Assembly: GCA_951406725.2 (NCBI GenBank)
Contig: CATOCA020000001.1
Location: 6,448,001 to 6,512,000, forward strand
Reading direction: 5' to 3'
Length of the DNA stretch: 64,000 nt
From: Octopus vulgaris
Taxonomy: Eukaryota
Below are positions 45,101 to 49,300 of this stretch, in pieces (the stretch's first letter is position 1; each line of letters starts with the position of its first letter). The position numbers were made by a program, and so were the translations under genes. The notes below the pieces were generated by a model. It worked only from the letters and a program-made list of their open reading frames with translations, did not search any database and had not been told where the DNA came from.

Positions 45101-45344
45101 TATATATATATATATATATATATATATATATATATATATATATATATATATATATTATATAAAAGGGCTTAGTAAAATAAATTACTTTGCCGCATACTGA
45201 ACTCGTTAGAAATAGCAGCTAAAAAAACTTTTTATAAAACTATTTCTAACACTTAAAGAAAACCTCTCTCATATAGTGTTTGCTCAATTCAACCCAAGAA
45301 AGTATGAGGGTAGAGACATTAAAAAATCAAATGCAAAGATTATT

Positions 45345-45397
45345 TGAGTACGTACGTTTCAAGATTAGTCAAAATCGACCCTTCTCTCATCAGCTCA
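45345..45397 (-). ncRNA. Type I hammerhead ribozyme motif
   Basis: Exact reverse complement of 46271-46323. Confidence 0.85.
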
Positions 45398-46270
45398 GAA
45401 TGCCCTTGTTTGAATTTGAAAACACTGAAAATGGGAGCATACCCTTTCGGCTTGTTATCGCTTCTGAAGATCTGTTCCAAACTAACAGTGCCAACAAACT
45501 CAAATATGCAAGCGAAGAATTTCTGTTCTCCCCTTTCCACCAGCGTGGGTTAAAATCAGCAAACACTATGCTTTTTTCGGTAAAATCCGAGACAATTAAG
45601 TAGAGAGAGATGAATTATAATTTCAACAATTGAGGGTAAAATTAATTAATTAATTAATCAATTTCACCAAGTATTCAGTATGCAAAGTGACAATTTAAGG
45701 CAAATTCAAATTATTACATTATATAAAAGGGCTTAGTAAAATAAATTACTTTGCCGCATACTGAACTCGTTAGAAATAGCATTTAATGTCTCTACCCTCA
45801 TACTTTCTTGAGTTGAATTGAGCAAACACTATATGAGAGAGGTTTTCTTTAAGTGTTAGAAATAGTTTTATAAAAAGTTTTTTTAGCTGCTATTTCTAAG
45901 GAGTTCAGTATGCGGCAAAGTAATTTATTTTACTAAGCCCTTTTATATAATGTAATAATTTGAATTTGCCTTAAATGGTCCCTTTGCATACTGAATACTT
46001 GGTGAAATTGATTAATTAATTAATTAATTTTACCCTCAATTGTTGAAATTATAATTCATCTCTCTCTACTTAATGTCTCGGATTTTACCGAAAAAAGCAT
46101 AGTGTTTGCTGATTTTAACCCACGCTGGTGGAAAGGGGAGAACAGAAATTCTTCGCTTGCATATTTGAGTTTGTTGGCACTGTTAGTTTGGAACAGATCT
46201 TCAGAAGCGATAACAAGCCGAAAGGGTATGCTCCCATTTTCAGTGTTTTCAAATTCAAACAAGGGCATTC

Positions 46271-46323
46271 TGAGCTGATGAGAGAAGGGTCGATTTTGAC
46301 TAATCTTGAAACGTACGTACTCA
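46271..46323 (+). ncRNA. Type I hammerhead ribozyme motif
   Basis: Stem I TGAG/CTCA; core CTGATGA (46275-46281); stem II GAGA/TCTT with inner GTCG/TGAC; GAAA; palindromic stem III ACGTACGT; predicted cleavage after GTA (46319). Confidence 0.85.
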
Positions 46324-49300
46324 AATAACCTTTGCATTTGATTTTTTAATGTCTCTACCCTCATAATTACTTGGGTTGAATTGAGCAAACACTATATGAG
46401 AGAGGTTTTCTTTAAGTGTTAGAAATAGTGAAATTGATTAATTAATTAATTGTTGAAATTATATATATATATATATATATATATATATATATATATATAT
46501 ATACATTAATATATATGTGCATATATATATAATCATATATCAATTCTATCATGAGATTACAGCATTGAAATTATAACATAAGTTTTGATTTTAAGATAAA
46601 ATTACTTAAACATTACTTTAAGAAGGGGCAACTTCACTGTTCTAATGTGTCGAACCTATCTTCCTAAACTTAATTACGTTTTATTCTAAACAAAATGAAC
46701 ATCTTGCCACTAATCAAACCCTTTAATTGGACTTTATTTATGAAATTTATCATGGCCTTTCTTTTTGTCTTTATCTCCTACCACAACACTTCCTAGTCAA
46801 TATGATTATTATTGATTTGGTCTAACCATTGTGTTCAATACGTTGATATTTTGCTTTTGTTGATGTCATTTGTAATGTATTCAGTATTGCACGGTAACCA
46901 AGGATTTCAGAGGGAGTTGGAAGGTGATAATTGCACATACATACCTACATACATATATATATATACATACATATATACATACAAACATACCTACATACAC
47001 ATACATACATACATACATACATATATACATACATACATACCTACATACATATATACATACATACATACATACATATATACATACATACATATATACATAC
47101 ATACATACATACATATATACATACATACATACCTACATACATATATACATATATACATATATACATACATACATACACACATACATACCTACATACCTTC
47201 ATACATACATACATACATACATACATACATACATACATACATACATACATACATACATACACAGATACGTACACACATACGTATATTTTATGGTCCCTTC
47301 AGTCATTGCATAACAGTTTTGAATTAGGGCTTGGTTTTGATGTTTAGGCCCCCACAAAACTGTGCATTAGCTGGGATTAATTAGCTAGCGAAATCTGTTT
47401 ATACGTAATTTTCTAAAAGTTTTTTCTGCGACGGTAAATAACAAAATTAGATTCCGGAAGGAAAATTAAAGCAATATCCTAATTTTGAAAAAGACAATAC
47501 AATATTTTGGAGTGAAAACTCAAAAATGAATGTTTAAAATGTAGTTATATAGTAGCTTTGCTTGTTACTATGGAAACAGGTACGCATGTGTCTGCGTCTA
47601 ACCATTTCTGACAATGACCTTCTGTTCGAAGTTTCAATGTTATATAGATAATTACATACACACTCTTTCACACATATACATAAACATATGTACACCTATC
47701 TATACATGCATAAATATATATAAATTCCTATATACACACAGGCAAACACACACACACATATAAATATGTATATAGAAATATGTATATATGGGTATAAATA
47801 TATATATGTGTATGTATATAAACACATACATATTATGCATATTTATATGTATATATACATATTATTATATATATATGCATGTATTTATATACACGTATAT
47901 ATTATATATATATATATATACATATATATGTTTTTCATTTCATTATATAACAATGTTATCATGAGATAGCTCCATTGAGATTATAACATAAGTGTCCATC
48001 TTAAGAGAAAAATCATTTAACATTACCTTTAAAAAGTTTAACTTCACTGTTTAAATGTTTCGATTCGGCAGTTTTCTCTAGAAATGAATAACCTATCTTC
48101 CTATACTTAATTATGTATTTTGCAAACACAATGAAAGTTTTTCAGCCAATCAAATCGTTTTCCTGGACATTAATTATCTACTTTATCATGGCTCTTATTT
48201 CTGCCTTTTTCTCCTACTACAATATTTCTTAGTCAATATTTTTATGATTGATTTTTCGGTTGTCACTATTTTGTTCAATACATTGACATTTTGCTTTTCT
48301 TGATGAAGTCTGTAATGTATTCAGTATTGAGCGTAACTAAGGACTTCAGATGGAGTCGGAAAATGATATGCATACATAAATACATACATACATACATACA
48401 TAAAGACATACATACATACATACATACATGCATGCAACCATGCTTGCGTGCATGCATGCATATATACATACATACATACATACATACATAAATGCATACA
48501 TGTATACATACATATATACATACATACATTAATAATTACATACATACATTCATACTTACATGCTTAAAACATGCGTACATACATACATTAGCTGGGATTA
48601 ATTAATTAGTGAAATATTTTATATATATTTTCCTAGATATTTCTCTGCAACAATTGATGTCTTTTTGTGTGTGGGTGTGTTTGTGTGTGTGTGTGTGTGT
48701 GTGTCTGTCTGTCTGTGTGTGTGTACTTGTGCATGGCAACAAGCCAACAAGTACAATGAATCGGATACAAAAGGCGTGTTTGTGAGCGAGAGAGAGAGTG
48801 AGAGAGTGAAAGTGAGAGGGAGAAAGAGAGTGAGAGAGAGAGTGTGAGAATGAGAGAGTGTGTGAGAGTGAGAGACAGTGACAGACAGACAGACAGTATC
48901 TTCCAGGCAGTTTATAGGTTATAGGAATTGATTCAAAATAACAACAGTGATATAAGTTAACGTAAGAGTTGTGATGAAAACGCTTACAGTCAAAACATTT
49001 GACTACATTTGACAACATTGTAATCCTCTTCTGTTTTCAAATACTCAGGAAGTGTAAATGCGAAACAAGCATATGTTCTAGCTTCCGTTTGTTATTCTCC
49101 AAAATACATAATTATAAAGTGTATAGTTTGTATATAACAGAGTATTACTGTATTATAATAGCGAAAAACCTGATGTTCATTCGATTAAATTTCTCTTTCC
49201 ACTTGGAGACAATAGGACCAACTTTATAGTATTATTAATTGATACAAACCCAATGTATTTCGAGTTTCCCGAATGTTCGACTTATCCGACTTGGAGTTAA

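Follow-up and report, generated by a model that had tools for sequence, protein, structure and literature searches.

A head-to-head copy of an abundant 564-base repeat with a hammerhead motif in a TA repeat of Octopus vulgaris

Results

Architecture of the insertion

What is a non-coding repeat that lies in a TA tract in both orientations, each of them reading through the junction between the repeat's own end and start, and how did it come to be there? The question is raised by a 1.3-kb insertion in the 64-kb stretch of DNA analysed here (the window), where it sits between two (TA)n runs within one unit of a non-coding segmental array. It proved to be a copy, inserted in a TA repeat, of an abundant repeat of 564 bases with a hammerhead motif (Table 1). 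With the unit numbered along the hammerhead strand from the first base past the predicted cut, two arms are seen head-to-head and pointing outward, the minus-strand arm reaching 45781 and the plus-strand arm starting at 45782, and both pass through the origin. An earlier reading made from the letters of this DNA (the sequence-only reading) had described an inversion near 45781, a circular permutation and a recurrence of the first ~60 bp 564 bp further on, all of which hold; the recurring segment is 45151–45222, found again at 45715–45786 (96% identity). The right arm differs from the left-arm unit by 7 substitutions and 1 gap (98.8% identity). Each arm carries one hammerhead of type I, whose stem III is palindromic, with a CUGAUGA...GAAA core and GUA, as had been stated. 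The two had also been called identical; the fold and the core are the same in both arms, but there is one difference, at unit position 10, directly beyond stem I.

Table 1. Features of the insertion and of a related insertion, in window coordinates
Feature	Position	Strand	Remarks
Left (TA)n target tract	45033..45156	.	122-nt pure TA run
A arm	45151..45781	-	631 nt, 1.1 units; unit 198 backwards via origin to 132; 3′ end at site A blends into TA tract
Type I hammerhead, A arm	45345..45397	-	predicted cut between 45349 and 45348
B arm, long part	45782..46429	+	648 nt, 1.15 units; unit 26 via origin to 110
Internal A/B module copy	45902..46053	+	unit 146–297, ~70% common to sister families; enclosing stem, inner hairpin, site A near 45945–45961; AU-rich hairpin, site B near 46047–46053
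Type I hammerhead, B arm	46271..46323	+	stem I 46271–46274/46320–46323; core from 46275, palindromic stem III, GUA, predicted cut after 46319
B-end piece	46428..46462	+	35 nt; unit 246–269 fused to about 285–295; abuts right TA run
Right (TA)n target tract	46460..46503	.
Independent sister-family insertion in paralogous TA tract	60374..61187	-	589-bp unit; 1.3-unit A arm with one hammerhead near 60585–60670; short B piece 61155–61186 on +

The ends of the locus are priming sites, not unit ends. The sequence-only reading had taken 45157, a priming site, as the end of the unit and had delimited an element from 45157 to 46462; the element is real, but the B-end piece and the rule that governs the two ends (see below) had been missed. 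A monomer bounded by two self-cleavage sites had also been assumed. Each strand of the locus has a single hammerhead, and the locus is therefore unable to release a unit RNA or a unit circle. With its two arms it is a daughter copy, from which no unit-length RNA would arise; read-through would probably yield a long double-stranded hairpin. No target-site duplication is readable inside (TA)n, where any duplication would be hidden.

Six paralogous sites of the host array retain both flanks. One holds the 564-bp family, one holds a sister family and four are empty, so the statement that the insertion is found in one array unit only is right for this family but overlooks the sister insertion at 60374–61187. 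The flank-to-flank gaps are 1868 and 1447 nt at the occupied sites versus 541–666 nt at the empty ones. Since the array units diverge from each other by roughly 5–10%, the insertion is younger than the array. It is recent in this sense, but "freshly inserted" goes too far: its arms are 1.26% apart versus a family mean of 0.84%, and the nearest other locus of the family is 3.4% away. The host array itself (25004–64000) has ~6.8-kb units, shortening to ~3.5-kb units past 54.7 kb, and is composed of microsatellites and repeat fragments; no gene was seen in it. Elsewhere in the window, a LINE-like RT (678 codons; ORF 8584–10620) with an endonuclease-like frame upstream was recognised by eye on the minus strand (8584–11534), and an unexplained 254-codon frame lies at 13398–14162 on the plus strand.

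A dispersed, non-coding family

A search of the genome (G000, 2.8 Gb) with the window unit yielded 1,696 candidates, of which the best 40 loci were scored. The exact 29-nt hammerhead motif has 1,780 matches in the genome versus none for the reversed control, and its abundance is therefore not due to chance; 38 clusters were counted among the 100 matches listed, which extrapolates to several hundred loci. Two samples were analysed, the 40 loci selected by similarity and 19 loci taken in order of position (19 of the 38 clusters), both of them chosen such that a full unit or an intact motif was present. The insertions are dispersed over many chromosomes, and the family includes tandem arrays of 16, 11, 9 and 6 units. 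A GUA-type subfamily with a 545–546-bp unit forms arrays of 11–12 copies at G000:C1:33099632-33105382 and 71597371-71603405.

The unit has a GC content of 33%, and its longest sense frame is 74 codons. An antisense frame of 108 codons (45277–45603 in the window, plus strand) is open in 79 of 86 long alignments, and its length was reached in 30 of 2,000 shuffles. This frame was rejected as coding because it has no Pfam match and shows 20 non-synonymous versus 4 synonymous changes. In both samples, arms longer than one unit always loop back into the unit and never into an ORF. A Penelope ORF contiguous with the unit was found in none of the 59 loci, and the tblastn matches to Penelope-like elements (PLEs) at 6 of the 40 and 1 of the 19 loci all lie outside the TA-bounded element. 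This result led us to regard the family as a non-LTR retrozyme and not as a solo pLTR; the possibility raised earlier, that the copies are simply the pLTR of a coding Penelope, was not borne out in these 59 loci. The proposal of a retrozyme or Penelope-related element is supported. By every sequence-level feature tested, the 564-bp family is a non-LTR retrozyme, with cleavage and circles as predicted properties.

Contigs from three further organisms match the unit, filling 27, 28 and 22 of 30 bins, and close relatives therefore exist outside this assembly. The same contigs, from runs guessed to be RNA, were rejected as evidence of expression, as they come without strand, ends or level.

The two arms end at different sites, A and B

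The outer ends of the arms are 3′ ends and fall at two sites of the unit, A (189–207) and B (291–303), about 100 nt apart with B downstream; the inner 5′ ends are scattered along the unit. These ends are internal priming sites and not LTRs. Among the 40 similarity-selected loci, both ends were classified automatically in 24, and all 24 were A+B; the other 16 either were one-armed or had an end that was unclassified or at a boundary value, and of these the window locus and L036 are A+B by eye. Thirteen of the 19 position-ordered loci were two-armed, and 12 of these were A+B, with one combining B and position 172. The two samples together gave 36 A+B, 0 A+A and 0 B+B (p = 1.5e-11 under independent equal choice).

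The cut site is crossed by 86 of the 95 arms ending at A or B, and 64 are longer than one unit, in samples that, as noted, were restricted to loci with a full unit or intact motif. At L383, L389 and L041, both arms stop at one short palindrome, as expected for annealing of two same-polarity cDNAs. Inspection by eye placed 3–4 of about 70 inner 5′ ends within 3 nt of the hammerhead cut (~0.9 expected), and a pile-up of 5′ ends at the cut was set aside as evidence because the excess is too weak and the samples are biased.

Arm and array haplotypes

The two arms of one locus usually share a haplotype. Mean divergence was 0.80% for the same arm, 0.84% for opposite arms of a locus and 2.89% between loci. 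Rare alleles were common to a locus's own arms at 53 of 9,242 sites versus 53 of 210,576 for cross pairs (17 of 8,121 versus 12 of 169,752 when the window locus and L031 were removed), and the partner arm was the nearest arm in 15 of 23 loci and not the nearest in the other 8. L031 (G000:C5:54195397-54201688), a composite of five long segments in which two haplotypes occur, is the closest relative of the window haplotype.

The arrays at L393 (9 full units) and L387 (5 units) are almost without variation, 8 of the 9 L393 units having no variable site. The L046 array has 38 singleton and 8 shared, non-periodic columns, and neighbouring units share variants in L046, L059 and L047. Such shared, non-periodic variants are not predicted by a single circular template. 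When variant periodicity was used as a test for circles, only L033 hinted at period 2, with one exception; its variants alternate at near period 2 over 2871–5636, and its template was possibly dimeric. The arm and array data fit a single RNA template, whether a circle or a linear multimer, and later gene conversion is compatible with them too.

Fold and variation of the hammerhead motif

The 40 loci contain 127 instances of the motif, nearly invariant and with an intact core, the core being part of the search pattern. The cleavage-site triplet is GUU in 114 copies and GUA in 12, and the base of stem II is G-U in the window copy and U-U in 111 of the 127. Helix III consists of 2 bp and a 4-nt palindromic loop, and the 8-nt palindrome of stem III forms a self-duplex of −11.8 kcal/mol. 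Papers are cited here by identifier. In PMC4209133, a self-pairing palindromic stem III is the dimer mode of hammerheads, and "minimal" denotes motifs that lack helix III; the present motif, earlier called minimal, is thus of the canonical animal type.

The best fold of the isolated motif (−8.1 kcal/mol; z 0.6) and the active fold (−5.9 kcal/mol) differ by 2.2 kcal/mol in favour of the former, and the circular fold of the unit disrupts stem I. The whole unit folds with a z of −5.9, and the antisense strand folds equally well (z −6.4). A hammerhead search, which had been suggested as a check, was negative: Rfam detected no hammerhead family in the window element at the gathering threshold or at E up to 10. 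In 10.64898/2026.07.22.740005, cleavage was reported for just 1 of 9 predicted dimers.

Stem covariation is almost absent within the 564-bp family alone. Across five related families (11 sequences), both partners are altered in 8 of 14 stem pairs, among them 5 of the 6 pairs of stem I, and the palindrome's centre switches from UA to CG. In these 11 sequences, 92.9% of cells pair in the hammerhead alignment versus 22–47% when it is slid, although the structure was drawn from those related sequences and the shuffle numbers are not probabilities. The compensatory stem changes across families argue for a selected ribozyme function. Covariation among copies, on which the sequence-only reading had staked its case, thus exists across sister families. 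Other hammerhead motifs, with differing palindromic stems III and apparently of other families, were seen at L122 2061–2990 (354-nt spacing) and L143 1883–1943. The hammerhead of the sister insertion in the window has a long stem II and, in this copy, C at core position 4.

An RNA module shared with sister families

Unit positions 124–280 match other TA-bounded elements at about 70%, and the sister families carrying this module number about 2,000 candidates each. The consensus fold of eight module copies comprises an enclosing stem, inner hairpins and an AU-rich hairpin ahead of B, with double changes at 7 of 37 pairs. Sixty sister-family loci gave 30 A+B, 1 B+B and 0 A+A, with one or no classified end in the other 29, in a count whose queries included the B end and in which three loci belong to one cluster. 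The single B+B locus, L127, is possibly two insertions. The sister insertion in the window is also A+B.

Resident PLEs

The genome contains five or more young PLE families whose long frames are intact (781, 775, 775, 753 and about 1,200 codons). Young families at L101 945–4590, L201, L250, L301 and L262 show many identical copies and TA-bounded ends; a long ORF1 lies upstream in two of them (L101, 346 aa; L201, a frame of 454 codons), and a hammerhead-like motif in the pLTR was seen in only one 775-codon family, with C at core position 4. One 765-aa PLE protein matches RT and GIY-YIG; its cysteine linker resembles that described for Neptune/Nematis in PMC8557442, a group to which it may belong.

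The resident PLEs end at TA tracts and have tails of about 33–47 nt. Head-to-head loci of two of these families, read by eye, were A+B in 11 of 11 cases each (22/22). The module was not found by blastn or nhmmer at the 3′ ends of the five young families and older fragments, and no homology of the unit to a pLTR was found in the five active families and older fragments. Module matches within PLE loci were rejected as PLE ends because they are separate TA-bounded insertions (L078, L118 and L211/212 by inspection; L189, L260 and L297 by position only). A scan for the GIY-YIG family (best 150 of 6,136 candidates) and protein searches, with the best 40–150 candidates scored per search, revealed no coding partner of the 564-bp family among those best-scored candidates.

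Discussion

The window locus is likely a two-armed retrozyme daughter, inserted by a borrowed PLE RT/GIY-YIG protein that primed both cut (TA)n strands on one multi-unit or circular RNA. In the proposed mechanism, tandem arrays elsewhere would be transcribed, paired hammerheads would cleave as dimers via the palindromic stem III, and the unit RNA would circularise. A PLE protein would bind the folded module and nick both target strands, one strand being primed at A and the other at B of the same RNA by 4–7 nt of UA-rich pairing. Both cDNAs would extend upstream, often past one unit, and their two ends would be joined head-to-head with 0–4 nt microhomology or small jumps. At the window locus, the A arm would have been copied for its 631 nt, and the B-end piece would mark where reverse transcription began, at site B, before two template jumps and then the 648 nt of the B arm.

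Several elements of this mechanism have precedents. PMC11167929 describes a PLE protein that cuts and extends both strands of AT-rich DNA, two internal RNA start sites that bound the PLE tail, and a predicted protein dimer; the Anolis PLE in vitro showed no strand difference in start site, and hammerhead cleavage was dispensable for insertion. PMC8557442 describes PLE tails that are often at one end only, inverted 5′-truncated copies and a microsatellite bias, and PMC7229834 proposes circular templates for retrozymes and names PLEs as candidates. Several points count against the explanation: no coding partner was found, the module being missing from the 3′ ends of the five young families and older fragments; the A–B distance is about 100 nt, versus 33–47 nt in the resident PLEs; Rfam was negative; the isolated fold is weak, stem I is disrupted in the circular fold and the stem II base is non-canonical. 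The near absence of covariation within the family, the single cleaving dimer of 10.64898/2026.07.22.740005, the equally good antisense fold, the arms not nearest to their partner, the shared non-periodic array variants and the in vitro behaviour of the Anolis PLE also weigh against it.

For the template, we lean slightly towards a circle over an uncleaved linear multimer. The latter, transcribed from tandem arrays and used by the same PLE machinery, with an inert or dispensable hammerhead and no circle, is a serious possibility to which we give about one chance in three. It would accommodate the weak predicted fold and stem II base as well as the variants common to neighbouring units in L046, L059 and L047, and hammerhead mutants left PLE insertion in vitro unaffected (PMC11167929). 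An inert hammerhead is difficult to reconcile with the compensatory stem changes across families, and a linear multimer with nearly identical arrays of 5–9 units that have locus-specific haplotypes; nor was a parent array seen, none of the 40 best-scoring loci exceeding 96% identity to the window unit.

Readings that dispense with a PLE-borne retrozyme fare worse. If the repeat were a satellite that recombination of DNA or slippage of replication at TA tracts had spread and inverted, the tandem arrays would be explained, TA tracts being unstable and no target duplication being readable in them. This reading is largely refuted by the distribution of ends, as fixed, polarised 3′ ends with scattered 5′ ends and a strict A+B rule are not those of such a process, and the dispersal over many chromosomes and the covarying ribozyme make it very improbable. 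L1 twin priming also produces head-to-head arms, and LINE RT fragments are present in the window, so that a TA-targeting LINE-type protein might mobilise the unit by ordinary twin priming. L1-type twin priming uses the RNA 3′ end and a variable internal site and gives non-overlapping arms, whereas here neither site varies and both are internal, the arms overlap, and the resident PLEs follow the same rule; we consider this reading improbable. Equally improbable is that the unit is a pLTR or a 5′-truncated remnant of an undetected coding PLE. Its footprint is the same as that of PLEs, vertebrate retrozymes match pLTRs (10.64898/2026.07.22.740005), and just the best 40–150 of thousands of candidates were scored per search, but none of the 59 family loci enters an ORF, the long arms loop back into the unit, and the module is missing from the ends of the five active PLE families.

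Returning to insertion of a retrozyme by a PLE protein, a more specific model can be offered tentatively. In this twin rolling circle, a PLE RT dimer would hold one 564-nt circle via the conserved folded module, its subunits would start at A and B on the two nicked strands of a TA repeat, and both would circle round; the retrozyme clade would then parasitise PLEs by RNA shape and not by a shared pLTR.

The family resembles the animal non-LTR retrozymes of PMC7229834 and 10.64898/2026.07.22.740005 in its units, which are tandem, poor in GC and non-coding and each carry one type I hammerhead, its range from monomers to multimers, its predicted strong self-pairing and its coexistence with PLEs. 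The unit length of 564 nt exceeds the 170–400 nt of the former and lies inside the 51–972 bp of the latter. Unlike the animal retrozymes described in those sources, its insertions are mostly two-armed and head-to-head with fixed A/B ends in (TA)n, and it has a cross-family module; the link to PLEs is pLTR homology in 10.64898/2026.07.22.740005 and the insertion footprint here, where no homologous pLTR was found. With the EN+ PLEs of PMC11167929 and PMC8557442 it shares two internal starts, a tail at one end, an inverted 5′-truncated copy, partial tandems and a microsatellite target, but it has no RT/GIY-YIG ORF, and its tail is about 100 nt versus 30–47 nt. Sites A and B have a short UA-rich match to the target, whereas the Anolis protein began without homology (PMC11167929). 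The 564-bp family works like a non-autonomous PLE, yet it is not a PLE, and is so far without pLTR homology. The short palindromic helix III is that of newt/axolotl-type dimer hammerheads, and the weak base of helix II recalls axolotl HHR_Amex2 (PMC4209133, PMC7229834), activity being a prediction here; unlike these hammerheads, helix II is extended by an internal loop, and no Rfam model matches.

The retrozyme class and its PLE link are already in print. In searches of the open-access literature, we found no description of the A+B rule or of two-armed insertions in retrozymes, of the long tail, of the cross-family module or of this family; within that literature, a retrozyme with so strict an A+B footprint, its long tail and the module are apparently new. 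In the papers cited, the enzyme that mobilises animal retrozymes is identified by co-occurrence and pLTR similarity, and the origin of PLE tails, inversions and tandems is called unresolved. Here, hundreds of young copies record the insertion reaction, with a strict one-A-one-B rule common to the resident PLEs, and both questions become testable in the published in vitro PLE assay with several intact PLE ORFs of this genome, the non-coding template of 564 nt and the candidate binding module of 150 nt. A short RNA module directing TA-targeted two-strand priming would interest retroelement engineers. If true, twin rolling-circle reverse transcription would account by one mechanism for partial tandems and the inverted copy as well as for the tail of PLEs.
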